Shown in pieces: positions 1,362 to 32,748 of a stretch of 64,000 bases of DNA. A program made the position numbers and the translations under genes. Positions within the stretch are counted from its first letter, which is position 1; every line of letters starts with the position of its first letter. The DNA is from Anaerolineales bacterium (lineage in GTDB: Bacteria; Chloroflexota; Anaerolineae; Anaerolineales; UBA4823). The notes beneath the pieces were generated by a model, which saw only the letters and a list, made by a program, of their open reading frames with translations, searched no databases and was not told the DNA's origin. The stretch lies in the NCBI GenBank assembly GCA_049281855.1, contig JBAPSY010000170.1, forward strand, positions 1,151-65,150. Reading direction: 5' to 3'.

Positions 1362-2987
<1,626 letters not shown>

Positions 2988-3048
2988 TCATGAGTCGCCC
3001 ATGGTGCTCAGAATACTGGTTCGGTTGATAAGCTCAATAATAAAGGCA

Positions 3049-3081
3049 GTGGGGAGGGCCGTTTGACGGCAACCTCCCCAC
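3049..3081 (-). terminator. Candidate intrinsic terminator downstream of the Roadblock gene
   Basis: GTGGGGAGG/CCTCCCCAC 9-bp stem with an inner GCCG/CGGC stem. On the minus strand it is followed by TGCCTTTATTATTG. Confidence 0.45.
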
Positions 3082-3118
3082 CCAGGATCTGCTGAATATC
3101 CCAGCTTAGCTTGCTGCA

Positions 3119-3547
3119 TCATCCCACCACTCGTTCCAAGTCTTGTGCAGCGCGACGCATTTCGAGAAAGACCAGCCCAAGTTTGGCGTGTTGGCCAGCC
3201 AGCACAGTCAGGACAGCTTCTGAACCTATGGAGGTGAGGATCACGAAACCTTCTCGCCCTTTGATGTAAACCTGCTCCAGGCTGCCGCGACCGAGCTCGG
3301 CAGAAATGCGTTCACCAAGACTAAGCATAGCCGCTGACATGGCCGCTACCCGGTCTTCCTCCACTTCATTGGGGAGAGCCGAGGCGATGATGAGGCCATC
3401 TACTGAAACAACCACCGAGGCTTCAATTTCCGGCGAGACGGCCTGCATCTGACGTAATCTTGAAACCATCTGTTCCGTGCGAGAAGTAGTTAAACTTTCC
3501 ATATTTTCGGTGGGTATAGATAAAATCACAACCCATGAGTTTACCAT
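3119..3547 (-). CDS. Roadblock/LC7 (MglB-like) domain protein
   Basis: 142 aa. VVVSVDGLIIASALPNEVEEDRVAAMSAAMLSLGERI...GFVILTSIGSEAVLTVLA is typical of the Roadblock/LC7 family. The start is uncertain; ATG 3502 is an alternative. Confidence 0.7.
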   Translation of the reverse strand: MVNSWVVILSIPTENMESLTTSRTEQMVSRLRQMQAVSPEIEASVVVSVDGLIIASALPNEVEEDRVAAMSAAMLSLGERISAELGRGSLEQVYIKGREGFVILTSIGSEAVLTVLAGQHAKLGLVFLEMRRAAQDLERVVG

Positions 3548-3705
3548 AATTTTATCAAAGTAGGGATCCAGGATTGGCTGGATATGATCCAGGATATGAA
3601 TAGTGGGTATCAGTTTCGAAATCTAATCCAAAAAAGCTGCCATTAGCTCACATAATTCATCCAAATTGCCCCATGACAATTTTTATGTTATATTAAGAGG
3701 TTGCC

Positions 3706-4380
3706 ATGCGCTACCTGCTTTTAATTCTGACGTTTATAATTTTCTTCCTGCCCCGCCTGGTAAATGCAGAGTGGAGGTCTTCATTAAAAGTACAACAGGA
3801 TGAATTAATTGGTGCAACGATTGACTCACCAGTTGCCGGGCAGGCAGTTCAAGGGAGCGTCGTGATCCGGGGTAGCACTACTGTGAATGGATTTCAATCA
3901 TATGAGGTCGATTTTGCCTATTCTGAAGATCCCACGCAAACATGGTTCCTGATCCAGGAAAGCACCTCTCTAGTTCAGGATGGGGTCCTGGCAGTTTGGG
4001 ACACCACCACAATCACCGATGGAGATTACACCTTACGCCTGGTGGTCATCCTGGTTAATGGAGCCCAGGTGGAAGTATCCATTCCGGGTTTACGTTTGCG
4101 CAACTACTCACCAATAGAAACGGAGACACCCAGCCCTACCCTACCTTATGTCACCCTGGCGGCAGGCACTCCCATTGTACAGGCCACACCGCTGGCCACA
4201 CTTCTGCCGACGGTTTCTCCACTGCCTCTCACTGCCACAGCATTACCAACGAATCCAGCTGAGATATCATCTTCCCAAGTGATGCTTACCTTTGGTAAGG
4301 GAGCTGCATTTACAATCGGATTATTTGCCCTGTTGGGCGCTTACCTGGGGATGCGTGCCATCCTACATAACCGTAAGTGA
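3706..4380 (+). CDS. Hypothetical exported protein with a C-terminal membrane anchor
   Basis: 224 aa. It has an N-terminal signal-like segment (LLLILTFIIFFLPRLVNA), a Pro/Thr-rich linker and a C-terminal TM (FTIGLFALLGAYLGM). AAGAGG lies upstream of the ATG. I recognised no family. Confidence 0.6.
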   Translation: MRYLLLILTFIIFFLPRLVNAEWRSSLKVQQDELIGATIDSPVAGQAVQGSVVIRGSTTVNGFQSYEVDFAYSEDPTQTWFLIQESTSLVQDGVLAVWDTTTITDGDYTLRLVVILVNGAQVEVSIPGLRLRNYSPIETETPSPTLPYVTLAAGTPIVQATPLATLLPTVSPLPLTATALPTNPAEISSSQVMLTFGKGAAFTIGLFALLGAYLGMRAILHNRK

Positions 4381-5051: not shown

Positions 5052-8000
5052 ATGGAACTTGAAAGAATCGTTGCCTCTATCGCAGATGCCTCGAGTGACC
5101 TATTCCGCCAGGTTGGGGATCATCATCGTATCGCTTCATTAGGAGTGCGCCGCTCTGCCCGGCTTCCGTGGTTAGCAGCCCTACAGCATACCCTGGAGCG
5201 CCCACTGTTATTACTGACCGATCGCAATGACCATGCGTTGATGCTCGCCGATGAGCTTGCTTTATGGGCGCCAAAAATCCCTCGCTTGTTCTTCCCCGAA
5301 CCCAATCCCCTATTTTACGAAAATGCTCCATGGGGTTTGACCACCAGGCGTGATCGCCTAATGGTCTTGACCACCCTGGCGGGTTACCATATCCCAGGCG
5401 TACCCAAACCTCCCCCACCCGTCATCATTGCACCAGCGAGGGCTGTGATGGCTCGCACCCTGCCCAGGCGTGATTTCCTTAAGGCATTACGCACGATTAA
5501 AATTGGGCAGGTAATCCAACCTGAAGAGCTGCTACGCGCCTGGGTGAGTTTGGGTTACGAACACACCAACATTGTGGTAAGCCCGGGGCAATTCTCCAGG
5601 CGTGGTGGAATCCTAGATATATGGACACCTTCATCTGAAGAACCTGTCAGGTTAGAGTTCTTCGGTGACGAGATAGACACGCTACGCCGGTTTGACCCTG
5701 CCTCACAGCGGACGATTGGCACGATTGACCGCCTAACGATATCACCCGCACGAGAATTCATCTCACCTGATCCTACCAGCCTAGGGAAATTAAAAATTGA
5801 ACTTACCAACCTGTCGGAATTTCATATTCCTTTACTCCATCCTTCTCCTGCCAGCGTGTTGGATTACCTGCCTCCATATGGATTGATCTTGATCGATGAC
5901 TTGCAAGCTGTACGAGATTGTGTTCAGGAGGTGGAAGAGCAGGCAGTGGGATTGCGTAAGGATTACATAAAAGACGGTGAACTCCCAACCGATTTTCCAA
6001 TCCCATACCTGACCTGGAGTGAGATCGAAGACACTCTGGCAGACAAACAAGCCATTGATCTGGGCCAGCCGACAGGACTGGAAAGCATCCCAAGCGGCTC
6101 AATGAACATCTCTGATAGCTTCCTACCTGGGACCCGCTTTGCGGGTCAGCTCAAGCCGTTGATGGATTACATCGAAAAAATATCGAATCAAGGTGAAGAT
6201 TTGTCGATTGTTTCACGCCAGTCTGCCCGATTGCAGGAACTCTGGAAGGAACATAGCCCGTTCACTTCACCCACCCTCCCCCTGACATTCTATGATGCCA
6301 GCCTGTCAGAGGGTTTCACCTTTGCGCCCGCTGGTGGAAAACCCCTTCACCTCCTAACCGATGGTGAGATATTCGGTTGGCGCCGACCTGAGCTGCGCCA
6401 ACGCCCACGCCCGGTGGCTGAAGCCCCTGAAGCTGCATATGCTGACCTGGAGCCTGGGGATTGGGTGGTGCATATGGATCACGGCATTGGGCGTTTCAAT
6501 GGACTGGTCCAACGTTCAGTGGATGGCATCGAGCGTGAATACCTGGCGGTGGAATATGCCGAGGGTGACCAGTTATTCGTCCCGGTATACCAGGCAGACC
6601 GGCTGACGCGTTATATTGGTCCGGATGCCCACGCACCTACTCCCTCCCGTTTGGGAAGCCCAGAATGGCGCACAACCAAATCGCGGGTCAAGGAGGCCGT
6701 AGAGGAGGTCGCTCAAGATCTGCTGGATCTGTACGCCCGTCGCAATGTGGTGGAAGGGCATGCCTTCGCCAAAGATGCGCCGTGGCAAAAGGAATTGGAG
6801 GCCAGCTTCCCCTACATAGAAACCCAGGACCAGTTAAGGGTCATCGCAGAAGTGAAAAAGGATATGGAAACCCCAAAACCGATGGATCGCCTGATCTGTG
6901 GGGATGTGGGTTACGGCAAGACAGAGGTGGCTTTACGTGCAGCCTTCAAAGCCGTAATGGATGGCGTGCAGGTGGCGATCCTGGTACCTACCACTGTCCT
7001 GGCCCAACAGCATTACCATACCTTCTGCCAGCGACTGGCGCCCTTCCCTGTGGAAGTAGAGATGCTTTCACGCTTCCGCACACCACAGCAACAAAAGGAT
7101 ATCCTGGACCGCCTGAGGCGAGGTAAAGTGGATATCATCATCGGTACCCACCGTTTGCTCCAGGGAGATGTATTGTTCAAAGACCTGGGTCTATTGATTA
7201 TAGATGAAGAACAACGCTTCGGTGTAACTCACAAAGAGACCTTGAAGAAAATGCGCACTGAAGTGGATGTGTTGACTCTGACTGCCACTCCCATCCCGCG
7301 TACATTGTATATGACCCTGACCGGTGTACGCGATATCTCCACGATCAACACTCCACCTGAAGAGCGCCTGCCGATCATCACGCATGTAGGACCTTATTCC
7401 CCGTGGCTGGTGCGCCAGGCGATCCTACGCGAGTTGGAACGTGGGGGGCAAGTATTCTTTGTTCATAACCGGGTACAAACCATCGGTGCGATGCGCGTGC
7501 ATCTGGAAAAATTGGTCCCCGAAGCGCGCATGGTCGTAGCTCATGGCCAGATGCAGGAAGATCAACTTTCACACCGCATGGATGAATTCGCCGCTGGGGA
7601 TGTGGATATCCTGCTAAGCACTTCGATCATTGAGTCAGGCCTGGACATCCCCAACGCGAACACGCTCATCGTGGACCGTGCAGATACCTTTGGTCTGGCT
7701 CAACTGTACCAGCTTCGAGGCCGAGTTGGGCGCGGGGCGCAGCGCGCCTATGCATATTTTTTCCGCCATAAGCATCTTGCTCCGACGTTGGAAGGTCGCC
7801 AACGTCTGGAAACAATCGCTGAAAATACCCAGCTAGGAGCGGGTTATTCCATCGCCATGCGCGACCTTGAAATTCGCGGGGCGGGTGATATCCTGGGAAC
7901 ACGCCAGCATGGGTATATCGCCTCGGTTGGTTTTCACCTATATACCAGGCTGCTGGCCGATTCTGTGCAGCGCCTGCGCAGTGGAAAAGCATTGCCGGTC

Positions 8001-8462
8001 CTCGCCGAAGCCTTCCAGTTCGAACAGGCAGCTCAGGGACTGCCCGTTTCGGTGGATTTACCGTTACCCGTCAGCTTGCCAGCCAGCTACATCCCCGACC
8101 GACAAACCCGCACACGCTTGTACAGGCGTCTCGCAGATCTCCGTTCACAAGATGAGATTGATACTCTGTCTGAGGAATTCATCGACCGCTTTGGTTCCCT
8201 ACCTGAAGAAACCTTAAACCTATTTTACCAACTAAAGATCAAGCTTTTAGCAGAAAAAGCCGGTTTGGCATCCGTGAGTGGTGAAGGTGGTCAAATCATC
8301 CTGCGATTTCCACCATTGGCTGAAGGAGAGAATTCCCGCGATCTGCCAGAGTTAGGGGAGGACATCCGCGCCGGGAAAAACGCATTATGGATGCCTGTAT
8401 CTGAAACAAACGATTGGCAAGATAAGCTCTTAACTGTTTTGCGCGAATTGAGCTCAAGCTAA
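5052..8462 (+). CDS. mfd: Transcription-repair coupling factor
   Basis: 1136 aa. It has a CarD-like RNAP-interaction region ([15 protein letters not shown]), helicase motifs ([20 protein letters not shown]) and a C-terminal TRCF domain. Confidence 0.93.
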
Positions 8463-8586: not shown

Positions 8587-9030
8587 ATGAACTATAAGGA
8601 TTTCCAAAACCGTGTCGATTATGGCACCCAAATGTTCGATTCTGGGAACATGCAAGCTGCGCTCGAGATTTTTACTGGTTTGGTGAGCAGTGACATCTCA
8701 GATCTCGACAAATCATCAATGTGTCTGAATATTGCCGTGGTCTATGAAAAATTGGTGAACCCCCAGCAATGTCTGGAATGGTACGCGAGAGCTGTTCAAC
8801 TAGAAAAACCCCACTGCCGCTTTGAAGCCCAGGAATACCTGGCTACCTATCTGAAACAAATCAGCCGGCCGCGCGAGAGTCTGAAAATCCTTGAGAGCAT
8901 GATGTCCTCCACCCATCTGACTGAAAGTGATAAAGTTCGCATCCGAGAAAATATTGAATCGTTGAAGGTTGAGATCAACAAACCGGTTTACCGCCGTCCT
9001 GGTGCACAAGAAGAAGATTCAACCGAATAA
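8587..9030 (+). CDS. Hypothetical TPR-like helical repeat protein
   Basis: 147 aa. GAGGAGG lies upstream. The helical-repeat character (AALEIFTGLV...LEWYARAVQLEKP) is only weakly TPR-like. Confidence 0.5.
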   Translation: MNYKDFQNRVDYGTQMFDSGNMQAALEIFTGLVSSDISDLDKSSMCLNIAVVYEKLVNPQQCLEWYARAVQLEKPHCRFEAQEYLATYLKQISRPRESLKILESMMSSTHLTESDKVRIRENIESLKVEINKPVYRRPGAQEEDSTE

Positions 9031-9094: not shown

Positions 9095-10126
9095 ATGCCA
9101 TCAGTTCTGGAATCACTAAATTCAGCTTTACACCAAGCGTTCACAGATAATCACAACGTCTATTTGTTGGGTGAGGATGTACTTGACCCGTATGGTGGTG
9201 CATTTAAGGTCACGCGCGGCTTATCAATCAGTTATCCTGATCGGGTAATAACCACCCCCATCTCAGAAGCAGGTTTCGTTGGAGTGGCAGCTGGGATGGC
9301 ACTGCGAGGCATGCGACCTGTGGTGGAGATCATGTTCGGAGATTTCACCAGCTTGATTGCCGACCAACTGATCAACCACATATCCAAATTCCACTGGATG
9401 TACAATGACCAGGTAAACCTCCCTTTGGTGATACGCACCCCCATGGGTGGTCGGCGTGGGTATGGTCCCACCCACAGCCAGACGCTTGAAAAGCTTTACC
9501 TAGGTGTGCCCGGATTGAAGGTGGTTGCACCAGCCGCGATGAGCCGTCTGGATGGATCAGGCAGCCCGGGGGATTTGCTTTATCACACGATCCTGGATAG
9601 CGAAGAGCCGACACTCTTCATTGAAAATAAGCTGCAGTATTACCTACCCGTTCAAAATCAGCTGGATTTGAAAGATTTTATCATTTCAGACGATCAAGGC
9701 AGTACGGGTTCATTCCGACCAACCTACATCCTCTCGATGAGAGGCGCGCCTCCAGCCACTCTGACCATCGCTGGCTATGGGTATATGGCTGAGCTGGCCA
9801 AGCAAGCTGTCACGCGTCTGGCTTATGAGCATGAGATTTTTTCCGAATTGGTGGTTCCCACACAGCTAGCACCATTCAATGTTGATCCAATTGTATATTC
9901 CACCAGCCGCACTGGTGCGCTCCTGGTGGTTGAAGAGGGAACTTTAACCCTAGGATGGGGAGCCGAAGTGCTTGCCAGGGTAGCTGAAGCGCTCGGCACT
10001 CAGCCGGTAAGATATAAACGCCTGGCAGCTAAAGATGTGCCCATCCCAGCATCAGGACCCCTCGAAGCGCGGGTATTACCCAGCGTAGACCATATCATTC
10101 AATCGGCTATCCAGATGAAACCATGA
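9095..10126 (+). CDS. 2-oxoacid dehydrogenase E1 component beta-subunit-like protein (transketolase Pyr plus C-terminal domains)
   Basis: 343 aa. YLLGEDVLDPYGGAFKVTRGL, TPISEAGFVGVAAGMALRGMRPVVEIMFGDF and GPTHSQTLE match the E1-beta pattern. No E1-alpha gene is adjacent. Confidence 0.8.
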   Translation: MPSVLESLNSALHQAFTDNHNVYLLGEDVLDPYGGAFKVTRGLSISYPDRVITTPISEAGFVGVAAGMALRGMRPVVEIMFGDFTSLIADQLINHISKFHWMYNDQVNLPLVIRTPMGGRRGYGPTHSQTLEKLYLGVPGLKVVAPAAMSRLDGSGSPGDLLYHTILDSEEPTLFIENKLQYYLPVQNQLDLKDFIISDDQGSTGSFRPTYILSMRGAPPATLTIAGYGYMAELAKQAVTRLAYEHEIFSELVVPTQLAPFNVDPIVYSTSRTGALLVVEEGTLTLGWGAEVLARVAEALGTQPVRYKRLAAKDVPIPASGPLEARVLPSVDHIIQSAIQMKP

Positions 10127-10221
10127 GCAGTGACTTCAGCAAACCACAAGTTTAGGAGACTTAAAGCACATCAGCAACTGTTGTAAAGTGTTAAAATGAG
10201 ATTTGTACTACCCCTAAAAGT

Positions 10222-11319
10222 ATGACTGAACCTATCCCAATCACCATTCCATTGATCAATCCCAATGAGCCAGAAGCTCGATTGGTTGCAATACACGTCG
10301 CACCTGGGCAACACGTCGAATCTGGTGATATGTTGTGCACCCTGGAAACCACCAAATCCACGGTTGACCTGACCGCTGAAACCGATGGCTATCTGGTCGG
10401 ATTAATTTTCGAGGTAGGTCAGACCGTCGAAGCAGGAGAAATCCTGGGATACCTGGCTGGTTCACCAGATTTGGCACCGCCCGCAGTCCCGATTTTGCTT
10501 AACGAACCACAATCTTCACGCCCGGAGAGCTTGCGCATCAGCCAAGCAGGGCTGCTGCTTGCACAGCAACATAATGTGGACCTGACCCAATTCTCAAGCG
10601 AGGTGTTTGTCACTGAGAAAATAATACAGGAAATGATCGACCTTTCCACCAAGCCGGAGCCTAAGCTGCAAGCTTATCAAACTGATTCGACTGCCATTAT
10701 TATTTATGGCGGTGGTGGACATGGCAAAGCCTTGATCGACTTGATTCGAGTGCTTGGGTCTTACTCCATCGCAGGTATCGTGGACGATGGAATCCCCGTT
10801 GGTTCCAGCATCATGGGAGTTAGAGTGCTAGGAGGGGCAAATATCCTGGGGAAGTTGGTTGAGCAAGGAGTGCACCTGGCTGCCAACGCGGTAGGTGGGA
10901 TCGGAAATATCTCCAGCCGAATTAAGGTATTTGAGCTCTTATCGCAAGCGGGATTCACATGTCCAACCCTGACTCATCTGACCGCTTTCATCGAGCCAAG
11001 CGCCATCCTCGCTGAAGGAGTGCAGGTGATGCCACATGCTTATGTAGGCAGTGAAGCGAATGTGGGGTATGGTGCAATTGTCAACACAGGTGCCATCGTC
11101 TCGCATGACTGCAATTTGGGTGATTATGCCAATCTTTCACCCGGTGCGATCCTGGCAGGTGAGGTCACCATTGGCAATGCCACGCTGGTAGGGATGGGAG
11201 TTACGGTGAACCTGCGCGTCAAAATAGGAAACCACGCCCGCATTGGTAATGGAGCCACCGTCAAACAGGACGTCCCCGAGGGCGGCATCGTGCGTGCAGG
11301 CACGATCTGGCCCGACTAG
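10222..11319 (+). CDS. Fusion protein: lipoyl/biotinyl-type domain, PSBD-like segment, and PglD/NeuD-family hexapeptide acyltransferase
   Basis: 365 aa. The N-terminus (GQHVESGDMLCTLETTKSTVDLTAETDGYLVGL) is a lipoyl-domain hairpin with the central Lys. ISQAGLLLAQQHNVDLTQF resembles a peripheral-subunit-binding domain. IIIYGGGGHGKALIDLIRVLGSYSIAGIVDD is a PglD_N/NeuD Rossmann-like N-domain. The C-terminus has left-handed beta-helix hexapeptide repeats that include SHDCNLG. Confidence 0.75.
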   Translation: MTEPIPITIPLINPNEPEARLVAIHVAPGQHVESGDMLCTLETTKSTVDLTAETDGYLVGLIFEVGQTVEAGEILGYLAGSPDLAPPAVPILLNEPQSSRPESLRISQAGLLLAQQHNVDLTQFSSEVFVTEKIIQEMIDLSTKPEPKLQAYQTDSTAIIIYGGGGHGKALIDLIRVLGSYSIAGIVDDGIPVGSSIMGVRVLGGANILGKLVEQGVHLAANAVGGIGNISSRIKVFELLSQAGFTCPTLTHLTAFIEPSAILAEGVQVMPHAYVGSEANVGYGAIVNTGAIVSHDCNLGDYANLSPGAILAGEVTIGNATLVGMGVTVNLRVKIGNHARIGNGATVKQDVPEGGIVRAGTIWPD

Positions 11320-11364
11320 AAATATCCCAAACTCATCATATTATATGGAAATACGATCATTCTT

Positions 11365-12564
11365 ATGACATCATCCGATACTCTTCCAACGATTTCTCCC
11401 ATAACAATGTCCTCCCCAGATCTGACTGATGAGGAGCGCAAAGCAGTGGCAATGGTTTTGGCAACGCCCAACCTATCCATGGGTAGCCAGATCACTGCTT
11501 TTGAAGAAAGCGTCAGGTCATACACTGGCAGCCAGTATGCCATCGGTGTTAGCTCTGGCACGGCTGGTTTGCACTTGTGTGTACGAGCAACCGGCATCCA
11601 AGCGGGAGACCTGGTTATCACCACGCCCTTCTCCTTCGTAGCCTCCGCCAATGTGCTCCTGTATGAAAGCGCAGTGCCCATATTTGTGGATGTGGAGCCG
11701 CGGACTGGGAATATTGATCCATACCTCGTTTTCGCCGCTGCCCAGGATATCATGCAGGGTGGCAAGAACACCCAAGCCTGGCTGCCTCCGAAAGGTGCCA
11801 GTGCAGATTCCACTCTTAAAGCCATCCTACCGGTGGATGTGTTTGGTCAACCGGCAGACCTGGAGCTGATTCTGAACACCGCCTGGAAGTACCAATTAAA
11901 AGTGATCGAAGATTCATGTGAAGCGCTGGGTGCGGCTTACCAAGGGCACCCGGCTGGCACACTGGGTGATTATGGTGTGTTCGGCTTTTACCCGAACAAG
12001 CAGATCACCACCGGTGAAGGTGGAATGATTATTACAGATGACGCAAATGGTGCTGGACTAATGCGCGCATTGCGTAACCAGGGTCGTGCCCCTGGAGATA
12101 CCTGGCTACAGCACACTCACCTGGGCTACAACTATCGCCTGGATGAGATGAGCGCAGCACTTGGGGTAATCCAGATGCAGCGATTGGATGAGCTCATCTC
12201 CAAGCGTGATCAGGTTGCAGACTGGTACAACCAACATATCTCAGAAATCCCCGGCGTCGAGACACCCACTATCGCAAAATACACCAGCAAGGTTAGCTGG
12301 TTTGTGTATGTGGTCCGGTTCGCTGCCGGGCTGGATCGGGATACCATTGCCAAGAAACTGGGAGCGCTAGGCGTCCCCGCACGACCATATTTCCTCCCCA
12401 TTCACCTGCAACCCTACATGGTGGAACGCTTTGGCTACCAGGAAGGTATGTTCCCGGTCACCGAAGATCTGGGCAAGCGCGGACTGGCACTACCCTTCTC
12501 AGGGGTGATGGATGAAGGACAGGTTGAGCGAGTGTGCCAGGCGCTCCGGGATGTGATCCTCTAA
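11365..12564 (+). CDS. DegT/DnrJ/EryC1/StrS-family (PglE-like) sugar aminotransferase
   Basis: 399 aa. Motifs: GVSSGTAGLHLCVRATGIQAGDLVITTPFSFVASAN and the PLP lysine context FYPNKQITTGEGGMI. The start may instead be the internal Met (MSSPDLTDEE). Confidence 0.88.
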   Translation: MTSSDTLPTISPITMSSPDLTDEERKAVAMVLATPNLSMGSQITAFEESVRSYTGSQYAIGVSSGTAGLHLCVRATGIQAGDLVITTPFSFVASANVLLYESAVPIFVDVEPRTGNIDPYLVFAAAQDIMQGGKNTQAWLPPKGASADSTLKAILPVDVFGQPADLELILNTAWKYQLKVIEDSCEALGAAYQGHPAGTLGDYGVFGFYPNKQITTGEGGMIITDDANGAGLMRALRNQGRAPGDTWLQHTHLGYNYRLDEMSAALGVIQMQRLDELISKRDQVADWYNQHISEIPGVETPTIAKYTSKVSWFVYVVRFAAGLDRDTIAKKLGALGVPARPYFLPIHLQPYMVERFGYQEGMFPVTEDLGKRGLALPFSGVMDEGQVERVCQALRDVIL

Positions 12565-12788
12565 TTAAGAGACGTGAAATTAATTATCCTTTATCTGATA
12601 TATTCAATCTTCCTCATTCCCTTCATTCATCAAACCAGCAAGAATTTTCTAAATAACTCGCTCCAGTGTGTAAATACTGTTTTTGCAACGATGGCGAAAT
12701 ACAATGCGGCTGGTAAAATTCATCAGGCAATTGACTGCGAAAGCATTAAGAGTATACTTGGGTGTCATCAAAACCCTAGGAGTAGAGT

Positions 12789-13790
12789 ATGAACATTGCG
12801 ATGTGGCGCAAAGCCTTACAGGTCATTCCGCATGTATCCAAAGATGAGTGGAATAAGTTGGATGTGATCTCCAAATGGTTGATCTCCACCCGGGCTGCGG
12901 TACTGATCATGACATTTCTTTCTGCAGCTTTCGCAGGTATCTTTGCTTTTCGCGACGGGAAATTTGACCTAGTAAAGTGGGTGCTACTAACCCTTGGGCT
13001 GATCTTCTCGCATGCAACCAACAACCTGTTGAATGATTTTACTGACTATAACCGCGGTGTCGACCAGGATAATTATTACCGGGCGCAATATGGACCCCAA
13101 CCTTTGGTACATGGACTGATGAACAAACGCCAGCATCTCACTTATGCTGGTGTGACGGGCGCGATCGCCTTGATATTTGGCCTCATCTTGGTGGCAATGA
13201 CCAACTTGTGGACGCTGCTGTTGCTGGCACTTGGAGTCTTTTTTGTCTTGTTCTACACCTGGCCGCTAAAATATATCGCCCTGGGTGAGATTGCTGTGCT
13301 ATTGGTGTGGGGACCGCTCATGATCGGTGGTGGATACTACGCCATCACAGGCAACTGGAGCTGGATGGTGGTGCTCGCCAGCCTGCCCTATGCCCTAGGA
13401 GTGACAGGGGTGATCTTCGGGAAGCATATTGACAAGTATGAAATGGATAAAGAGCGTCACATTCACACCCTGCCAGTGGTGATTGGGGAGCGGAACGCCC
13501 GCTACACACTGGTTGCCATACTTATTTTGCAGTATGTGTTCACCCTGGCGTTGGTCCTCACAGGCTTCTACACCCTGGTGATGGCTGCAGTGGTATTGGC
13601 AATTCCCACCTTGCGAAAAATCTGGCCGATGTTTGGAGCCCCCAAGCCAGACGAAAAGCCAGCAGATTATCCGGACGTTTGGCCGAATTATTTCGTGGCA
13701 GCAGCCTTCATACATAACCGAAGCTTCGGCATCTGGTTCATGCTAGCTTTGATTGTCGACTCAGTTTTGAAGGTTTATATCTTGATGTAA
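12789..13790 (+). CDS. UbiA-family prenyltransferase (MenA-like motif)
   Basis: 333 aa and polytopic. NNLLNDFTDYNRGVD matches the NDxxDxxxGxD prenyl-diphosphate binding motif of MenA-type UbiA enzymes. Confidence 0.75.
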   Translation: MNIAMWRKALQVIPHVSKDEWNKLDVISKWLISTRAAVLIMTFLSAAFAGIFAFRDGKFDLVKWVLLTLGLIFSHATNNLLNDFTDYNRGVDQDNYYRAQYGPQPLVHGLMNKRQHLTYAGVTGAIALIFGLILVAMTNLWTLLLLALGVFFVLFYTWPLKYIALGEIAVLLVWGPLMIGGGYYAITGNWSWMVVLASLPYALGVTGVIFGKHIDKYEMDKERHIHTLPVVIGERNARYTLVAILILQYVFTLALVLTGFYTLVMAAVVLAIPTLRKIWPMFGAPKPDEKPADYPDVWPNYFVAAAFIHNRSFGIWFMLALIVDSVLKVYILM

Positions 13791-13795: not shown

Positions 13796-14440
13796 TCAAC
13801 CTGCCGGGAAGACCAGGTCTTCCTTGCCCACCAAAATGTCTTGAATGCGTTTCACGACAACGTCTAGGTGTTGTGGTTTGTGAACGAAATCCAGATCGTC
13901 TGAGCGGATCGTCAGCACCGGGCACACATCGAAGCTTTTTAGCCAATCATCGTAAAAAGATTCGAGCAGAGATAAATACTCCTCAGTAATACCGGTTTCG
14001 ATACTACGAGCACGGCTATGAATGCGGTTCATCAACACCTGAACCGGTGCTTTTAAGTAGATCAATAAATCTGGGGGTGGCAATTGCGAAGTGATCAGAT
14101 CAAACACGCGCCGATACGAAAGATAATCGCGTTCGTCCACATTCCCCATATGGTGTAGAGCCCTGGCAAAGATATATTCATCCTCATAAATTGTACGATC
14201 AAAGATCACCGATTGCGGTTCTTTTGTCATCTGAAGGTATTGTTCAGCACGATGACCCAGGAAAAATATCTGTAAATGAAATGACCACTCTCGCATATCT
14301 TTGTAAAAATCAGCCAGATAAGGGTTATCTGACACCGATTCAAATGCACATCGCCATCCCATGCGCTCACCTAGCCTTTCAGCCAGTGAGGTCTTGCCTG
14401 CTCCGATATTTCCAGCCACGATGACGAGACGTTTGGTCAT
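13796..14440 (-). CDS. Deoxynucleoside kinase
   Basis: 214 aa. It has the P-loop GNIGAGKTSLAERL and FESVSDNPYLADFY...SFHLQIFFL, typical of the dNK/dCK/dGK family. Confidence 0.85.
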   Translation of the reverse strand: MTKRLVIVAGNIGAGKTSLAERLGERMGWRCAFESVSDNPYLADFYKDMREWSFHLQIFFLGHRAEQYLQMTKEPQSVIFDRTIYEDEYIFARALHHMGNVDERDYLSYRRVFDLITSQLPPPDLLIYLKAPVQVLMNRIHSRARSIETGITEEYLSLLESFYDDWLKSFDVCPVLTIRSDDLDFVHKPQHLDVVVKRIQDILVGKEDLVFPAG

Positions 14441-23925: not shown

Positions 23926-26547
23926 TTAACACTCAGAATACCCGCACGCGTAGCATTTACGGCAGCCTTCTTCATTAACAACTGCTGCTTGACCACAATC
24001 CGGACATAGATCGCCAATCTGGAAGGCTGGTTGTGCCGCCGAATGTGTTTGTTCCGGGATATCTGATGGACGAATTGGGTATTTCCCGTAACCACCATTC
24101 CCACCGTTGGCGGCAGCTTCTTGATATTCCTCCGAATCTTCAAGATATTCCGCCAGGGTTTGGGCTACCCCGTCCGGGAGCGAACGCACCCGGTTGGGAC
24201 CAAAGCCTAATGATCTCCCACCCCCTATACCAGAGAGCTGCTTGACAATCTCCTTAAGCCGCTCGCGCGGCATGATTGGAGAGGCAATGCGCAGCAGGTA
24301 TGAGATTAACCGTCCAATGGCCTCAGAGACTGCAGCAGTTTCTGAGCCAGCTTTGGCCGTGCTGACAAATACCTCAAATGGATGATCGCCGCCATTCTCA
24401 TTGACTGTCACGAAAGCTTTTCCTACCGGAGTGCTGATGCTATACGTGTAGCCTCTCAAGCGTCGCGGGCGAGGCTTTTTCGATACTGACCAAACGTGTT
24501 CCTCTTCAGCAGAGATGATGGCTTTCTTGTCTTCTTGAATTTGTTCGCCTTGAAGGTTAAATTCTCTTTCTCGTGAGGTGGCTTTCGTCTCCAGGACGAC
24601 CTTCTGCCGGGACCCAGTCACATAAACTGTAATCCCTTTACATGCCAACTTCCAGGCCAACAAGTATGCAGTGGCAACATCCTCTTCGGTGGCATTGGGC
24701 GGGAAGTTCACCGTCTTGCTGAGACTGTTATCCACAAAAGCCTGCATGGCTGCCTGCATGCGTACATGTTCCTCGGCACTGATATCCTGCGAAACGACAA
24801 ACACATGTTGGATCTGCTCGGGGACTGCTTCGTTCCCCTGGCAGGTGCCGCTCTCCATCACCTGTTCAACGATCGACTGGCGCGTATGCTCGTCGATCCC
24901 TCCGTCTAACAACGCATTTTCAAATTGGGGGCTGGTATAGGTCAGTGGCAGGTCATGCCCGTTATCGTTTACGTGGCGGATATAAGCCAGGGCAAACACC
25001 GGCTCACAACCGTATCCTTCACATCCAGCAACAGTGGCGATGGTGCCTGTGGGCGCTATGGTGGTTTGGGCAGCATTGCGAATGCCATGGGTCTTGATCC
25101 CCTGAACGACATTTTCCCAGTCCACTGCAGGTCGATTGAAATCACGACTGAATGGTGTGATTGGCTTGGGAGGTACCCAACCTATCTGTTCAGGGTCATA
25201 GATAGAACCCTTGATGGATGGGAAAGCCCCTCGTTTTCCAGCCAACTCGATGCTGGTAAGCATGGCATGATACCGGATGAATTCCATCACCTGCGCCGCA
25301 AATTCCTGCCCTTCTTCTGAGCCATAACGGATGCCGCAGTGATACATCAAATCGCCCAGGCCCATCATCCCCAACCCTATCCGGCGAGCCTGATCAGCGG
25401 CTTTTTTGAGCTGAGGCACCGCTGGGACGTATGCATTGGCTTGAATGACATCATCCAAAAAAATAGTGGCGGTTTCCACTGCGACACGCAGCTTCTCCCA
25501 ATCCACCTGATGGATTGCACCAAGCATTTCCGCCAGGTTCACTGAACCCAGACAGCAGTTTTCATATGGACCCAACCATTGCTCCCCGCAAGGATTGGTT
25601 GCTTCAAGCTGGTATAAATGAGGAACAGGATTGGAACGATTTGCAGTGTCCAAAAACAGCATGCCGGGTTCCCCGTTGTGGTGGGCTTGCTTAACGATTT
25701 TATCGAATAAATCGCGTGCTCTGACTTGCCGGTAGGTGATGATGGGGATACCGGCTTTCTCGGCCATCTCCAACGTCCCGTGAAATTCATGGTATGCAGG
25801 GCTGGCAACATCCGGAAAGCGCAGATCCCACATTCCATCGTTTTCCACGGCATGTATAAAAGCATCGGTGATCCCTACTGAGATATTAAAGTTGGTGATG
25901 GCATTTTCATCCGTCTTGCAATTGATGAAATCTTCGATATCGGGGTGATCGACGCGTAATACAGCCATATTCGCACCACGGCGTGTACCACCCTGAGCAA
26001 TCTCGCCAAATGCCTTATCATATACTCGTAAGAAACCAACCGGACCAGTCGCCTGCCCAGCAGATGCTTTAACCAGCGTATTTTTTGGTCTTAGCCGGGA
26101 GAAGGAAAATCCATTCCCTCCACCAGTCTGCTGGATCAAAGCTGCATCGCGCAAGGTTTGAAATATCCCAGCCTCATGTCGTCCCATATCATCCGAAACT
26201 GGCAGCACAAAACAGGCTGCCAGCTGACCCAAGGGAGTTCCTGCGCCGGTAAATGTGGGAGAGTTGGGAAAGAATTGTTTGCTGGTGAGTAGCATGTAGA
26301 ATTGACCTGCACGGTCCATCTCATTCCCGTTCCAGATCTGCTCGACTTTAGCTACATGATAAGCTACCCGCCAAAACATTCCTTCGATACTTTCGGCAGG
26401 TTTACCTTCACGATCACGCCTGACATAACGCCGAATGAGTACCTGACGCGCGTTATCTGTTAGATGAATCTCCGATAATCCAGCAGGTATCTCAGGGGTC
26501 GGGATCAAACCATACCGGTCAATTCGTTCGTATGAAGTCTGTACCAT
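23926..26547 (-). CDS. nrdJ: Adenosylcobalamin-dependent (class II) ribonucleotide reductase
   Basis: ORF 23926..26565 starts at GTG. I prefer ATG 26547, which has GGAGAG upstream. The active-site region is [20 protein letters not shown]. The C-terminal Cys-rich Zn ribbon CPDCG...CRKCYACG is known from many class II RNRs. Confidence 0.92.
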
Positions 26548-26576
26548 AATAGCTCTCCAAACCACCTTAATAATTC

Positions 26577-27026
26577 TCAGCCTTCCAATAAATGGTCGAT
26601 CTCATTGCGGATGGAGCGTAAATCATCCAAACCAAGATAAACAATGGCATAACGAATGTAGGCAATCTGGTCCATTTCCTTTAGACCTGCGATGACCATA
26701 TCACCAACCACCCGGGAGGAAACTTCCGCACGCCCCATAGCTTGGAGTGTAGCTTCAATCTCCCCCACCAGCCGATCAACATCAGCTGCAGGGACGGGAC
26801 GCTTAGCACATGCGATGCGTATACCCCGGCTTAGTTTCTCATGATCGAACTCTTCGCGCGTTCCATCCTGTTTTACGATCAGCGGTGTTGCCAGGATAGG
26901 ACGCTCATAAGTACTAAAACGTTGACCGCAATTCTCACATTCCCTGCGGCGTCTTACTCCGCCACGTGTATCGTGTGAAGTGTCAATTACCCTAGATTCA
27001 TCATGTCTGCAATAAGGACAGCGCAT
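26577..27026 (-). CDS. nrdR: Transcriptional repressor NrdR
   Basis: 149 aa. It has a Zn ribbon (MRCPYCRH...[12 protein letters not shown]) and an ATP-cone domain. Confidence 0.95.
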
Positions 27027-27685: not shown

Positions 27686-28840
27686 CTAATTATGAATGCG
27701 GTTTCGCAGGAAGGTTGGGATATCCAAGTCCTCAGTATTGAATGTGCGCGGTGTAAAGTCGGTCTTGGCAACCTCGACGGACTGCAGCTCACGCGCCGCC
27801 TCATCCTGGATCATGGTTGGCTTTTCCTGACGCAACGAGTTTTTCTGTGGCTCAGCTGTCCGACGGACTGCCATACCTGTGCGTTCAAAACCCGTCGCGA
27901 TCACCGTCACGCGCACTTCATCGCCCATGTTCTGGTCAATCACTGCACCGAAGATCAAATTAACATCCGGATGCGCAGTTTCCTTAATTATTGCAGCCGC
28001 CTGATTGACCTCGAACAAGGTCAGGTCGGGTCCACCGGTGACGTTGAACAGGATGCCGCGTGCACCATCGATAGTGATATCCAGCAACTGGCTGGAAATA
28101 GCTTGCTCAGCTGCCATTTTTGCGCGATCATCCCCGCGCCCAGTGCCCACTGCCATAAGCGCTGCACCGCCTTCAGACATGATCGTCCGTACATCTGCAA
28201 AGTCCAGGTTGATCAGTCCAGGGACGGTGATCAGCTCTGAAATACCCTGTACACCCTGGCGAAGTACATCATCGGCGACCCTGAATGCATCCTGTAGATT
28301 GGCATGTTTATCGACGATTTGAAGCAAGCGGTCATTGGGGATGACGATCAATGTATCGGCTTGCTCCTTCAATTTTTCGATGCCTGCTTCTGCAACCTGG
28401 ATGCGTTTTGAGCCTTCAAATGCAAATGGACGGGTGACCACACCAATGGTAAGGGCACCAAGCTCGCGTCCGATCTGTGCAATCATGGAGGCAGCTCCGG
28501 TACCGGTACCACCACCCATTCCACCGGTGACGAAGACCATATCCGCCCCGCGCAGCACGTTGTAAAGGGCTTCCTGTGATTCTTCGGCAGCCTTGCGCCC
28601 TTGCTCCGGGTTTCCACCGGAACCCAGGCCTCGGGTAAGCTTTTCGCCTATACGCACCCGCGTTGGGGCGCTGGAAAGCATCAGTGCCTGGGCATCTGTG
28701 TTTATGGCAATGAATTCAACACCCTGAAGACCTTCTTTGATCATCCTCTCAACGGCGTTGCATCCACCACCTCCCACGCCCACTACTTTGATGTGGGCAA
28801 AGGATTCCAACTGGCTCGAGAAATTCATATTTTGGTTCAT
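27686..28840 (-). CDS. ftsZ: Cell division GTPase FtsZ
   Basis: 384 aa. The tubulin signature is [25 protein letters not shown] lies upstream. Confidence 0.97.
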
Positions 28841-28949
28841 GATTACGGTCCTCCTCCTAAATATATGTGAAATGAATTGGTATTTCGCTGGTTCGCTCTA
28901 TTAGCGATCCCAAATTATTGCAAGTGTAAGGTATGGAAAGAGTATTCAC

Positions 28950-30197
28950 TTATGGCAGTAACCTCCTTAGAAAATTCTTAACCGATTCCCACTCAATTCC
29001 GCCGGTCGCTGTTCCGATACGAATCCCCTGGCGGGTAGGCTGCACGTAAATATCAGTCATTAACAATGCCCACTTGAGCAAGCCAACACTGGTCGAATAA
29101 GCTGGTGAATCCAGTTTGTCAGACATACCGATCAAATCTTCGGGCATGGCAATGCGGACCGGGAGATTAAGAGTCTGGCTGGCTAACGACCGAATACCTG
29201 GCAGAATACTGGATCCTCCTGTGAGGACCATGCCTGCGGGAAGCAAACCATCATACCCTGAGCGTTTAATTTCCTGCAGGACCAGACTAAATATCTCCTC
29301 CACCCGGGCTTCGATAATATGGGCAAGCTCCTGGCGGTTGATCTCCACGGGCTGTTCCTCACCAAACGGCTTGATGCTAAATGATTCATTCAGATTGACT
29401 TCATCACGAACAGCATGCCCATGCTTTATTTTTATTTCCTCTGCCTGGGTGATAGGCAGGCGTAGCCCATGCGCAATATCGGATGTGATATGGTCCCCAC
29501 CGACCGCTAAAACATTGGTGTGCCAGACATCGCCGCCGATATAGATCGCCATATCAGTGGTACCACCACCCATATCACAAATCACCACACCCATCTCACG
29601 CTCGGTCTCAGTCAAGACAACTTCAGCCGAAGCCAGGGGGTTAAGCACGAACTGAGATACCTCCACGCCAGCTGCGCCGACACACTGCCGTAGATTTTCC
29701 ACCGAAGCTGCCGAAGCTGTGATGATATGGGTTTCAACCTCCAGGCGGTAGCCATGCATTCCTAAAGGCTTTCGTATTCCTTCCTGCCCGTCAATGCTAA
29801 ATCCACGTTGAATAATATGTATGATTTCACGGTTATGAGGAATATTGACCGCCTTGGCAGCATCAATTGCCCGGGCGATATCACCTTCATCAATCATTCG
29901 TCCTGCGACGCCCACCACACCCCGACTGTTGACGGATGAAACATGTGAGCCTGCCAGACTGACCAGGGCGGAATCAATCTCCAGCCCACAGGTTCGCTCT
30001 GCTTTTTCCACGGAACGCACCACAGCTTGTGATGCAGCAACCATATCCACCACCACACCCTTACGCACGCCTTGAGATGGTTCTACGCCTACTCCCAGGA
30101 TGCGTAATTGGCCTGGCGCTTCTTCACGACCAACCAGGGTGCATATCTTGGTCGTGCCTATATCAATTGCGACAATGATTAGTTCGTCCATAATCAC
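28950..30197 (-). CDS. ftsA: Cell division protein FtsA
   Basis: 415 aa with an actin-like ATPase fold (IVAIDIGTTKICTLVG, DMGGGTTDMAIY). Confidence 0.93.
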   Translation of the reverse strand: MIMDELIIVAIDIGTTKICTLVGREEAPGQLRILGVGVEPSQGVRKGVVVDMVAASQAVVRSVEKAERTCGLEIDSALVSLAGSHVSSVNSRGVVGVAGRMIDEGDIARAIDAAKAVNIPHNREIIHIIQRGFSIDGQEGIRKPLGMHGYRLEVETHIITASAASVENLRQCVGAAGVEVSQFVLNPLASAEVVLTETEREMGVVICDMGGGTTDMAIYIGGDVWHTNVLAVGGDHITSDIAHGLRLPITQAEEIKIKHGHAVRDEVNLNESFSIKPFGEEQPVEINRQELAHIIEARVEEIFSLVLQEIKRSGYDGLLPAGMVLTGGSSILPGIRSLASQTLNLPVRIAMPEDLIGMSDKLDSPAYSTSVGLLKWALLMTDIYVQPTRQGIRIGTATGGIEWESVKNFLRRLLP

Positions 30198-30212
30198 TTC
30201 TTTGCGGCGAGA

Positions 30213-31616
30213 TCACCGCTCCATCCGATAATATGGTGCGTGGACATACTCCACGCTGATCAAAGCTGGTTGAATTCCTTCACTTTGTAAGCGGTCCACC
30301 AGTGCTTGATATACAACTAATTTCATTTCCATATCCTGGTCTTCTGCCCCAAAAAATACTTCCCAGCCATTGGGATCATTCCATCCCAACCCGTGCTCAC
30401 TGTCATACACCAGCAATGTATCTGCAGGCATCTTCGCACCAAGTGAAAGGATGGCTGAAACCAGCTCATGTGACAGCTTCAATGTAGGATTATTGGGACT
30501 GGAAGTAGATGCGACTGCTCCTGGCAGGATCTGCAGATTATCCGGTGAGGCTGCTGCAGCAGTGCTCGGTGGGGTGCCACGTCCTTCCACCCTGATCAGC
30601 GTAGTCGTTGGGTTACCCCTTGGTGGGAATGAAACACCTTCTGCATCCACCCAGGCCTCAACCCCATCCTGAACCCAAGAAATGACCGGCTCACGTTCAG
30701 TGACCACCACTTTCACACTTGCGGGTAGATTGACCCTGACGGAAATTTTGGATAACTCAGGGAATGCCTGGTATAGTATCTTATCCAACGAGGTAGGATT
30801 GATGGTGAATACCGACTTTCCAAACGTTCCCATTACCGCATTCAGATCACCCACCGTCAAGCGCTGCAATCCTTTTGCTTCCACTGTATTGATTTGGAAA
30901 ACAGGTGCTTTCCAGATGAGAAACAAGCTGGCGGACATCATTAAGACCATCATGAGAGAGACCGCCCTCCAGCCCAGGTGAAGGAAAGGAAGCGATGGCA
31001 GACGAAGCTCAGCCCCAGGGACGTTCAGGGGAACATCGATACGACGCCTGGGCGATCTTTGCTTATGTAATCGCGACGAGGCTGACCGACCAAAGGCCAT
31101 CCCACCCATCCCTCCGCGCACCATAACGGGTGGAGCAGCATCTGAGTGGGCATCATATACCCTGCGGCTCTTTCGAGGGAGGTAATCACGCCCGGTATGG
31201 GTAATACGCTGAGTTTCCGTGCGTGGTGTAGCCTCATAAAGATTATCACTCCGCCGTGATTCTGCTTTGCGGTGGGGATTACGAGGAGCTGATACCTTGC
31301 TTACGAATAATGTTTTTCGTGAGGATTGCTCAGGCGTAGATATGTGGGAATCAAGCCCTAATTTAGAGCTGAGCATTCCCTGGATCGAAGGCATTGAAAC
31401 GGTTGACATCTTGATCTGGGCAGCGACCAGTCGCTCCCTGATGGATGGTCCACTCCTGCTTGAGGCACGCGACCGTACAGCTTTACGCTTGTTTGTAACT
31501 ATCTCAGCTTGGGTGGAGGTCCCTGATCCATGCTCGCGCTTTATTTTCCTCTTGCGGGCTCTGCCAAGATCTGATGTTGATCTCTGTCGATTTAAATCAC
31601 GCTCAAACTCTGTCAT
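30213..31616 (-). CDS. ftsQ: FtsQ/DivIB-type cell division protein with a long basic N-terminal extension
   Basis: 467 aa. A ~210-aa Arg/Lys/Ser-rich cytoplasmic region is followed by a TM (AVSLMMVLMMSASLFLIW) and a POTRA-like segment (FQINTVEAKGLQRLTVGDL). It sits at the dcw position between ddl and ftsA. Confidence 0.75.
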   Translation of the reverse strand: MTEFERDLNRQRSTSDLGRARKRKIKREHGSGTSTQAEIVTNKRKAVRSRASSRSGPSIRERLVAAQIKMSTVSMPSIQGMLSSKLGLDSHISTPEQSSRKTLFVSKVSAPRNPHRKAESRRSDNLYEATPRTETQRITHTGRDYLPRKSRRVYDAHSDAAPPVMVRGGMGGMAFGRSASSRLHKQRSPRRRIDVPLNVPGAELRLPSLPFLHLGWRAVSLMMVLMMSASLFLIWKAPVFQINTVEAKGLQRLTVGDLNAVMGTFGKSVFTINPTSLDKILYQAFPELSKISVRVNLPASVKVVVTEREPVISWVQDGVEAWVDAEGVSFPPRGNPTTTLIRVEGRGTPPSTAAAASPDNLQILPGAVASTSSPNNPTLKLSHELVSAILSLGAKMPADTLLVYDSEHGLGWNDPNGWEVFFGAEDQDMEMKLVVYQALVDRLQSEGIQPALISVEYVHAPYYRMER

Positions 31617-31619
31617 ATG

Positions 31620-32738: not shown

Positions 32739-32748
32739 TCAAATGCCT

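Follow-up and report, generated by a model that had tools for sequence, protein, structure and literature searches.

A lipoyl domain fused to a PglD/PerB-type N-acyltransferase and paired with an E1 component in Anaerolineales: a candidate route from 2-oxo acids to N-acyl amino sugars

In silico analysis of a 64,000 nucleotide stretch of Anaerolineales bacterium contig JBAPSY010000170.1 (assembly GCA_049281855.1), hereafter the window, established that genes for a protein resembling the beta subunit of the E1 component of 2-oxoacid dehydrogenases (E1-beta), for a 365-aa fusion protein and for an aminotransferase of the DegT family lie in a row at 9095-10126, 10222-11319 and 11365-12564, all on the + strand and exactly where an earlier note, made from the sequence alone, had placed them. 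The fusion protein joins a lipoyl domain and a segment resembling a peripheral subunit-binding domain (PSBD) to a PglD/PerB-type N-acyltransferase, and it represents a large family that is real and widespread across several phyla. The reading that we favour, with moderate confidence, is that an acyl group derived from a 2-oxo acid would be carried on the lipoyl arm and transferred to an amino sugar without the involvement of CoA, and that the window holds one half of a split gene cluster, the proposed product of which is a nucleotide-linked 4-acylamino-4,6-dideoxyhexose.

Domain architecture of the fusion protein

The domains of the fusion follow one another in the order lipoyl domain, Pro/Ala-rich linker, PSBD-like domain, second linker, PglD_N and left-handed beta-helix N-acyltransferase. 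The lipoyl domain (aa 5-79, 10234-10458), which had been proposed in the earlier note, was recovered by the Pfam profile hidden Markov model (HMM) Biotin_lipoyl at residues 14-77 with an E value of 2.9e-13 (49.9 bits against a cutoff of 22.1), and the presumed lipoyl-lysine is residue 45 (K45, codon 10354-10356) within the motif ETTKS. In the PDB, residues 3-93 matched the lipoyl domains of E3-binding protein (E3BP) and of E2o (1ghj), the best match of the N-terminal 90 residues being E3BP (1zy8_K, 5.5e-8; also 2dnc). The PSBD-like segment (aa 104-143, 10531-10650) was likewise part of the earlier proposal. Pfam E3_binding gave no match in the window fusion and matched only 2 of the 119 distant relatives described below; a profile of residues 100-146 built from 66 relatives, however, retrieved solved PSBDs ahead of all other PDB entries (1w4i at 3.1e-6, with 1w4j, 2eq9_C, 2eq8_C, 2btg, 2cyu, 1w4h and 1bal as further top matches), the loop of the fusion family being 3 residues shorter than in the solved PSBDs. 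An AlphaFold2 (AF2) model computed with the 119 relatives in the alignment (mean pLDDT 93.8, pTM 0.70) displayed a confident beta-barrel at residues 5-79, a low-confidence linker at approximately 90-100, two helices at 108-116 and 132-143 within the PSBD-like segment, and Rossmann-like and beta-helix domains after these helices.

The N-acyltransferase part is encoded at 10693-11316 and consists of PglD_N (aa 158-245) and a left-handed beta-helix (aa 246-365). Pfam matched residues 159-238 to PglD_N (1.2e-10) and the beta-helix to Hexapep (3e-12), while PF00198 (2-oxoacid_dh), the core of E2 that resembles chloramphenicol acetyltransferase (CAT), had no match in the fusion, residues 158-365 being taken up by PglD_N and Hexapep. 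This agrees with the earlier observation that a PglD/NeuD-type N-domain and a hexapeptide beta-helix containing the motif SHDC are found in place of the E2 core. Residues 158-355 matched the GDP-perosamine N-acetyltransferase PerB (4ea7, 9.7e-27), and the catalytic His of PerB (H141) or PglD (H125) has its counterpart in H295 (codon 11104-11106) of the SHDC motif, with which PerB His141 aligns. Structural comparison of the C-terminal half with PerB 4eaa by Foldseek gave an E value of 9e-17, a root-mean-square deviation (rmsd) of 0.9 A, a target TM score of 0.90 and 35% identity, and the NCBIfam cutoff for the NeuD/PglB/VioB family TIGR03570 (160.8 bits) was narrowly passed, at 161.3 bits. The fusion is not an E2, as the 2-oxoacid_dh catalytic core was tested for and is absent; its 157-aa extension and its obligatory E1 partner make it an atypical representative of the PglD/NeuD family.

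Conservation and distribution of the family

A search of 5.8 billion proteins yielded a close set for which 120 clusters were listed at 66-100% identity to the window fusion; nearly all of these are 365 aa in length and carry the same three Pfam domains. The motif ETTK is invariant among them (120 of 120), and the mean identity is 69% in the lipoyl domain and 64% in the PSBD as compared to 32-34% in the linkers. Exhaustive searching of representatives clustered at 50% identity returned 430 proteins at E<=1e-30, and a distant set was defined as the 119 of the best 150 representatives that are 330-400 aa long and align from end to end, with 28-52% identity to the window fusion. Biotin_lipoyl was found in 117 members of the distant set, PglD_N in 117 and Hexapep in all 119. 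The lipoyl motif in these relatives reads E-[ST]-[ST]-K-[AST], and E42 (117/119), G56 (118/119) and G72 (109/119) are kept together with K45 itself, the loss of which the earlier note had named among the observations that would tell against its reading and which is present in 118 of the 119 distant relatives as well as in every listed close one. Conservation of the acyltransferase is comparable, with H295 retained in 118, S294 in 112 and D296 in 108 of the 119. A biotinyl domain was considered and rejected, since the residue that precedes the Lys is Met in just 1 of the 119 and Ser or Thr in 115, and the motif is therefore not of the biotin type.

According to their source names, members of the family derive from Chloroflexota/Anaerolineales, Armatimonadota, Omnitrophota, Gemmatimonadota and Bacteroidota, including Polaribacter and Dokdonia. 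The architecture is invisible in current annotation because these proteins are labelled just as NeuD/PglB/VioB family sugar acetyltransferase or as EpsM. The PglD-type half was also observed within two much longer proteins, P0159 (865 aa, with 4 matched stretches and the acyltransferase at 442-635) and P0258 (429 aa).

The E1 partner and the adjacent aminotransferase

The E1-beta-like subunit (343 aa) matched Transket_pyr (1.4e-25) and Transketolase_C (1.9e-15) in Pfam, and it retains both the Glu that activates thiamine diphosphate (ThDP), Glu58 in TPISE (codon 9266-9268), and the active-site His127 in THSQ (codon 9473-9475). Its TPISE and HSQ motifs align with those of 1ik6 (2.5e-42) and of human PDHB (3exe_B, 4.7e-38) in the PDB. 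The NCBIfam model for the beta subunit of pyruvate dehydrogenase (PDH) E1 scored 187 bits, below its cutoff of 321, and the best NCBIfam match of the E1-alpha proteins of relatives was PDH E1-alpha (TIGR03182; 235-246 bits against a cutoff of 394), all E1 scores thus falling under the NCBIfam equivalog cutoffs.

Loci of relatives were read around their E1 or fusion genes and are numbered L002 to L086. An E1 gene precedes the fusion, either directly or with a gene for NHL repeats in between, in 30 of the 30 neighbourhoods read: each of the 22 Anaerolineae genome loci has E1-beta just before the fusion, and in all 8 distant contexts E1 lies immediately upstream, the start of the fusion gene overlapping the E1 stop codon in 7 of them. 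E1-alpha and E1-beta are encoded by separate genes in L027 and L028, whereas they are joined in a single protein of 640-685 aa in L030-L035 and of 661 aa in L019. No 2-oxoacid_dh (E2 core) domain was present in the ten neighbourhoods for which Pfam gene tables were available, which leaves the fusion as the sole lipoyl partner nearby for a dedicated E1.

The DegT-family protein (399 aa, Pfam DegT 7.1e-104) is predicted to be a nucleotide-sugar 4-aminotransferase of fold type I, dependent on pyridoxal phosphate (PLP), and its gene is the next one after the fusion in 19 of the 21 Anaerolineae loci that have downstream sequence. Its best PDB match was the GDP-perosamine synthase PerA (3bn1, 1.3e-68), with whose motif the PLP lysine K212 in PNKQITTGEGG (codon 11998-12000) is aligned; the NCBIfam models PseC and LegC scored approximately 280 bits, below their cutoffs, and the ArnB cutoff was likewise unmet. 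The enzymes nearest to the acyltransferase half and to the aminotransferase are thus PerB and PerA rather than PglD and PglE, with which the earlier note had compared them. The counts above also speak against the refuting case named in that note, in which the three genes would not be conserved together.

Many Anaerolineae carry, between E1-beta and the fusion, a gene for a protein in which an N-terminal zinc ribbon (CPxCG...CxYCG) is combined with a transmembrane segment and with beta-propeller repeats of the NHL/SBBP type, as seen in L008 (8739-9996), L011 (6781-8070), L021, L022, L036 and L038. A remnant of 180 aa persists in L002 (9454-9996), and in the window there is just a 95-bp spacer (10127-10221). 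Frameshifts split mfd, E1-beta, the fusion, DegT and E1-alpha into 2-3 pieces in L007, L009, L012, L015 and L016, and only in these long-read contigs of metagenome-assembled genomes (MAGs); indel error in assembly is the most likely cause rather than pseudogenisation.

A probable operon split and the missing E1-alpha

E1-alpha was not detected in the 64-kb window by tblastn with the E1-alpha of a relative (E<=1e-4), nor was an E1_dh domain found by Pfam in the other large ORFs (open reading frames) of the window, in agreement with the earlier note, which had regarded the absence as anomalous. The absence is genuine for this locus, but E1-alpha is otherwise a regular member of the module, as it adjoins or is fused to E1-beta in all relatives outside the clade to which the window belongs, and a split is probable here. 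The canonical Anaerolineae locus has the order pth - mfd - PglC-like phosphoglycosyltransferase (PGT) - (ASCH or EamA) - E1alpha - E1beta - (NHL-repeat) - fusion - DegT - UbiA - deoxynucleoside kinase. In the window the order is mfd - TPR147 - E1beta - fusion - DegT - UbiA, where TPR147 is a 147-aa TPR-like protein (8587-9030, +) with a weak match to TPR_1 in Pfam and a weak SycD/LcrH-like match in NCBIfam. A further 13 related loci similarly lack E1-alpha within +/-10 kb and have TPR147 in place of PGT and E1alpha.

When metagenomes were scanned with the L012 E1-alpha as seed, most of the loci returned were canonical, and six loci (L046, L048, L049, L055, L057 and L063) also came to light in which E1alpha is followed by neither E1-beta nor fusion over 2.6-10 kb of downstream sequence. 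As far as the contigs reach, these orphan loci share the layout UGDH(-) - LexA - PGT - EamA - E1alpha, and the genes downstream encode a D-Ser-dehydratase-like protein, FadR, a GlcD-like protein, GlpD and an S1 protein. L075 is a seventh locus of this layout, its approximately 1.4 kb of downstream sequence holding the D-Ser-dehydratase-like gene, and one of the orphan loci is from Chloroflexi bacterium RBG_16_54_11. L066 reads UGDH(-) - LexA - PGT - EamA - E1alpha - TPR147 - E1beta, and L012 and L039 read PGT - (EamA) - E1alpha - TPR147 - E1beta - fusion, so that TPR147 lies between E1-alpha and E1-beta in all three. To judge from these gene orders, a single breakpoint between E1alpha and TPR147 is exactly what would turn the L066-type order into an orphan half and a window half. 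In neighbour-joining (NJ) trees the orphan E1-alphas are monophyletic, as are the E1-betas that lack an E1-alpha, with similar depths (0.19-0.27 and 0.18-0.27, respectively) and with both nested in the same Anaerolineae group. The ORFs that flank the orphan loci had no match in the window, and the orphan E1-alphas were not among the 120 E1-alpha homologues listed, a list that was filled by canonical-locus proteins of at least 70% identity and is uninformative on absence.

The lack of E1-alpha thus probably represents a lineage-specific operon split, with relocation of the gene rather than its loss, and the window organism would then encode E1-alpha, PGT and EamA at its lexA locus. The window clade does not appear to be decaying, because ETTK is invariant, the lipoyl domain and PSBD are conserved above the linkers and the catalytic residues of E1-beta are kept; throughout the clade E1-beta shares 72-80% identity, with an unbroken ORF except for the frameshifts in the L009 MAG. 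TPR147, which always precedes E1-beta in the loci of this clade, is 79-86% identical among them and is better conserved than either E1-beta or the fusion. It is present exactly where it separates E1-alpha from E1-beta (L012, L039 and L066) or where the two are split (the window clade), and it could be an accessory protein or assembly adaptor.

Gene contexts and the likely acceptor

The distant contexts bear on what the fusion may acylate. L027 has the order 4,6-dehydratase - DegT - CBS-NTP-transferase - E1alpha - E1beta - fusion - NeuB - NeuC-like epimerase - CMP-synthetase and also carries a HisF/HisH-like pair, a layout of the legionaminic-acid type in which the fusion, by its position, would fill the slot of the 4-N-acetyltransferase. 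In the nonulosonic-acid cluster of L035 (an Omnitrophota MAG, 10001-13026) the fusion occurs together with a plain 205-aa PglD, with a DegT gene between the two, a pairing that would suit a di-amino sugar bearing two distinct N-acyl groups. L032, L033 and L034 are likewise glycan clusters that include DegT genes. In the Bacteroidota loci L030 (1-10008) and L031 (1-10011), however, the modules stand at the end of nonribosomal peptide synthetase (NRPS) gene sets comprising Condensation, AMP-binding, PP-binding, thioesterase and phosphopantetheinyl transferase (PPTase) functions, with a TonB-dependent receptor in addition in L031 and with no sugar genes in either, which points to a peptide or siderophore-like molecule, rather than a sugar, as the substrate of N-acylation. 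L028 is a bare trio of E1alpha, E1beta and fusion with no sugar genes nearby. The amino sugar that the earlier note had proposed as acceptor is therefore in keeping with the glycan and nonulosonic-acid contexts that predominate but is not universal, and the module is best described, on present gene neighbourhoods, as a portable unit that would make an acyl group from a 2-oxo acid for an acceptor that is usually, though not always, a nucleotide amino sugar.

Proposed mechanism and alternative explanations

In the mechanism that we favour, an E1 of alpha2beta2 composition, with E1-beta from the window and E1-alpha from elsewhere (probably from beside lexA, together with the PglC-like PGT and the EamA transporter), would oxidatively decarboxylate a 2-oxo acid, and the resulting enamine-ThDP would reductively acylate the lipoyl-lysine K45 of the fusion. 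The PSBD-like domain would dock E1 and probably also the dihydrolipoamide dehydrogenase (E3) that re-oxidises the arm, and the flexible linkers would let the S-acyl-dihydrolipoyl arm swing into the cleft of a trimeric PglD/PerB-type beta-helix. There, His295 would deprotonate the 4-amino group of the sugar nucleotide supplied by the adjacent DegT/PerA-like aminotransferase, and the acyl group would pass from thioester to amine with no acyl-CoA intermediate, the dihydrolipoamide being re-oxidised by a shared E3. We infer in this scheme the lipoylation itself, the chemistry of the acyl donor, the identity of the 2-oxo acid, the involvement of E3 and the location of E1-alpha. Conversion of pyruvate to an acetyl group is possible, since E1-alpha scores best against PDH E1-alpha, but a dedicated machine of this kind may make most sense for acyl groups whose CoA thioesters are not readily available, for instance glycolyl (from hydroxypyruvate) or propionyl (from 2-oxobutyrate). 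The core of the mechanism was put forward in the earlier note, and it is the best-supported reading of the architecture, conservation and genomic coupling observed here, from which its chemistry is extrapolated; the computational tests by which the note had said it could be refuted, namely the lipoyl HMM, the conservation of the Lys and the co-conservation of the genes, all came out in its favour.

A number of observations nevertheless weigh against this mechanism. The residue preceding the lipoyl Lys is Ser or Thr as opposed to the canonical Asp of E2 lipoyl domains, and the acyltransferase half is of full length and shares its 35% identity with an enzyme, PerB, that uses acetyl-CoA. Genes for E3, lipoate ligase and lipoate synthase were not present in the window or in the neighbourhoods read, a 4,6-dehydratase was absent from the window, and no contig or assembly shared by the orphan loci and the window clade emerged from cluster look-ups. 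Two members in NRPS clusters and one without sugar genes speak against the amino sugar as a universal acceptor. In L036/L037 a gene for the glycine-cleavage T-protein (2747-3907, -) precedes the canonical locus by a few kb, which implies lipoylation machinery and an L-protein (E3) in at least some of these Anaerolineae.

It may just be that the beta-helix is an ordinary acetyl-CoA-dependent N-acetyltransferase of the PglD/PerB type and that the lipoyl and PSBD-like domains, rather than carrying the acyl group that is transferred, merely dock it to E1 or to a complex of the PDH type, with channelling or redox regulation as the purpose, as would suit its normal length, its retained catalytic His, the 0.9 A superposition on PerB at 35% identity, the TIGR03570 score and the lack of an E1-alpha in the window. 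A docking role, however, does not need a near-invariant modifiable Lys within E-[ST]-[ST]-K (118/119), a dedicated E1 without an E2 core would have no other local means of discharging its acyl group, and the occurrence of a plain PglD beside the fusion in L035 suggests that the two perform different jobs; we consider this explanation unlikely. Somewhat harder to credit is that the beta-helix stands in for the E2 core by moving the dihydrolipoyl-bound acyl group to a thiol carrier, either CoA or a carrier protein, for use by other enzymes. The nucleotide site of PglD_N could accommodate the ADP moiety of CoA, L030 and L031 lie in NRPS clusters that have PP-binding proteins and a PPTase but no sugar genes, L028 is a stand-alone trio, and the NapB/NapD-QncN/QncL systems discussed below are said to provide a precedent for transfer of a lipoyl-bound acyl group to acyl carrier protein (ACP). 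Against this, enzymes of the PglD family are N-acyltransferases that act on 4-amino sugars, and the fusion mostly occupies that slot beside DegT with no second acyltransferase present, as in L027, L033, L034 and the Anaerolineae loci, making the thiol-carrier role quite improbable.

We attach only a small probability, slightly lower again, to the module of the window clade being a decaying relic from which E1-alpha and PGT were deleted, with a non-catalytic E1-beta and a fusion that, if it works, uses acetyl-CoA. Both genes are indeed missing from the window and, within +/-10 kb, from 14 related loci, but E1-beta remains 72-80% identical with Glu58, His127 and (L009 frameshifts aside) an intact ORF, ETTK is invariant with the lipoyl domain and PSBD conserved well above the linkers, and complementary orphan lexA-PGT-EamA-E1alpha loci exist in Chloroflexi, with L066 as the unsplit intermediate. 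E1alpha/beta-like pairs in deoxysugar clusters are known to form branched-chain sugars, and an E1 that acts on the sugar itself, adding a two-carbon branch to a 4-keto sugar in a ThDP-dependent reaction of the kind proposed for AviB1/AviB2-type E1 pairs, would find its 4-keto intermediate available upstream of DegT. As this would render the lipoyl domain incidental and leave unexplained the invariant lipoyl Lys, the PSBD and the strict fusion to an N-acyltransferase, C-branching is very improbable indeed.

Comparison with known systems

The 2-oxoacid dehydrogenase complexes, such as PDH, branched-chain 2-oxoacid dehydrogenase (BCKDH) and acetoin dehydrogenase, are built from E1 (alpha2beta2), E2 and E3, and the module shares with them PDH-like E1 subunits, an N-terminal lipoyl domain with its Lys in a beta-turn, Pro/Ala-rich linkers and a two-helix PSBD-like domain, arranged in the order found in E2. 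It departs from them in having PglD_N and a left-handed beta-helix in place of the CAT-like 2-oxoacid_dh core, in the motif E-[ST]-[ST]-K as compared to the E-x-D-K-A of E2, in its predicted acceptor (an amine rather than CoA) and in the lack of an E3 gene nearby, and it thus varies the 2-oxoacid-dehydrogenase theme in a new way. As the CAT-like assembly core is replaced by the beta-helix N-acyltransferase, a trimer is expected for the fusion rather than a 24- or 60-mer.

The PglD, PerB, VioB, PglB-ATD and LegH enzymes (TIGR03570) resemble the C-terminal half in their two-domain fold, aligned catalytic His and gene position beside DegT, including in clusters of the legionaminic type. These are, however, stand-alone proteins of approximately 200 aa that use acetyl-CoA, whereas the fusion has the 157-aa lipoyl and PSBD extension and is always paired with E1. 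E3BP (protein X of eukaryotic PDH), to which the N-terminal part of the fusion is closest, is similarly a protein with lipoyl and PSBD domains and with a C-terminal part that does not function as an E2 acyltransferase, but in E3BP this part is a degenerate, structural E2 core, while the fusion ends in a different and apparently active enzyme. The nearest functional precedent, by analogy, may be NapB/NapD and QncN/QncL(/QncM) of the tetrahydroisoquinoline antibiotics, in which a ThDP enzyme reportedly loads a C2 acyl group on a lipoyl arm for transfer to an ACP. The features in common would be an E1- or transketolase-type ThDP enzyme, a lipoyl arm and a biosynthetic acceptor other than CoA, and part of the fusion family is itself found in NRPS clusters. 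The antibiotic systems are said to keep a canonical E2-type acyltransferase domain and to use an ACP thiol as acceptor, in contrast to the beta-helix N-acyltransferase and predicted amino-sugar acceptor of the fusion, and PP-binding genes were absent from the window and occurred only in the NRPS contexts L030 and L031.

Flanking genes of the window

E1-beta, the fusion, DegT and UbiA are co-oriented with TPR147 in front, and the group is bounded upstream by mfd (5052-8462) and downstream by a convergent deoxynucleoside kinase gene (13796-14440, -). The UbiA/MenA-like polyprenyltransferase (333 aa, 12789-13790, +; Pfam UbiA 7e-35, every NCBIfam match under its cutoff) follows DegT in most Anaerolineae loci but is missing from the canonical loci L051, L069, L070 and L086. 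The possibility that UbiA belongs to the core of the module was rejected, owing to the absence of UbiA from all distant contexts outside Anaerolineae and from several Anaerolineae loci. A promoter and terminator scan of 8.3-14.7 kb gave nothing usefully above shuffled expectation. Elsewhere, the window carries a complete dcw cluster (27686-46194, -) comprising mraZ, rsmH, a penicillin-binding protein transpeptidase, mur ligases, mraY, ftsW, murG, murB, ddl, ftsA and ftsZ, which is adjoined by nrdR and a class II-like ribonucleotide reductase (RNR) gene (23926-27026). An RNR gene beside the canonical locus of L036 (18478-20903, -) carries an intein with a LAGLIDADG endonuclease domain; its orthologue in the window (23926-26565, -; 879 aa) has no intein domains by Pfam.

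Significance

Full-text literature searches turned up no description of a lipoyl-PglD fusion, in keeping with the earlier statement that the architecture had not been characterised; a paper retrieved with 'lipoyl' and 'NeuD' (PMC4875605) was discarded as irrelevant, 'lipoylation' there meaning lipidation. Friedrich et al. (PMC5378307) state that it is unknown which genes give bacterial nonulosonic acids their N-glyceroyl and similar N-acyl groups, glycolyl among them. The module is located in nonulosonic-acid clusters, and it is thus a testable candidate for the genes behind such unusual N-acyl groups.

We lean, if only slightly, towards the view that these proteins form a widespread class of mini 2-oxoacid-dehydrogenase assemblies, in which an E1 and a lipoyl-PSBD-beta-helix acyltransferase turn 2-oxo acids directly into the N-acyl substituents of amino sugars and, in certain lineages, of peptide natural products, by way of S-acyl-dihydrolipoyl and with no acyl-CoA. 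Lipoyl arms hand acyl groups to CoA in E2 cores, serve aminomethyl chemistry in the H protein and, in one natural-product case, deliver an acyl group to ACP. Coupling of such an arm to a sugar N-acyltransferase would add a new output to the repertoire of the cofactor and, if the proposed mechanism is correct, would be the first case in which lipoamide directly donates the acyl group of an amide bond. Bacteria would gain a new way of drawing on 2-oxo acids for the N-acyl groups of sugars in the absence of the corresponding acyl-CoA, and the non-acetyl N-acyl groups of legionaminic acid, pseudaminic acid and related sugars, the origin of which is unexplained, would have a candidate source. The module would also represent a compact, engineerable system for novel N-acyl sugar nucleotides.

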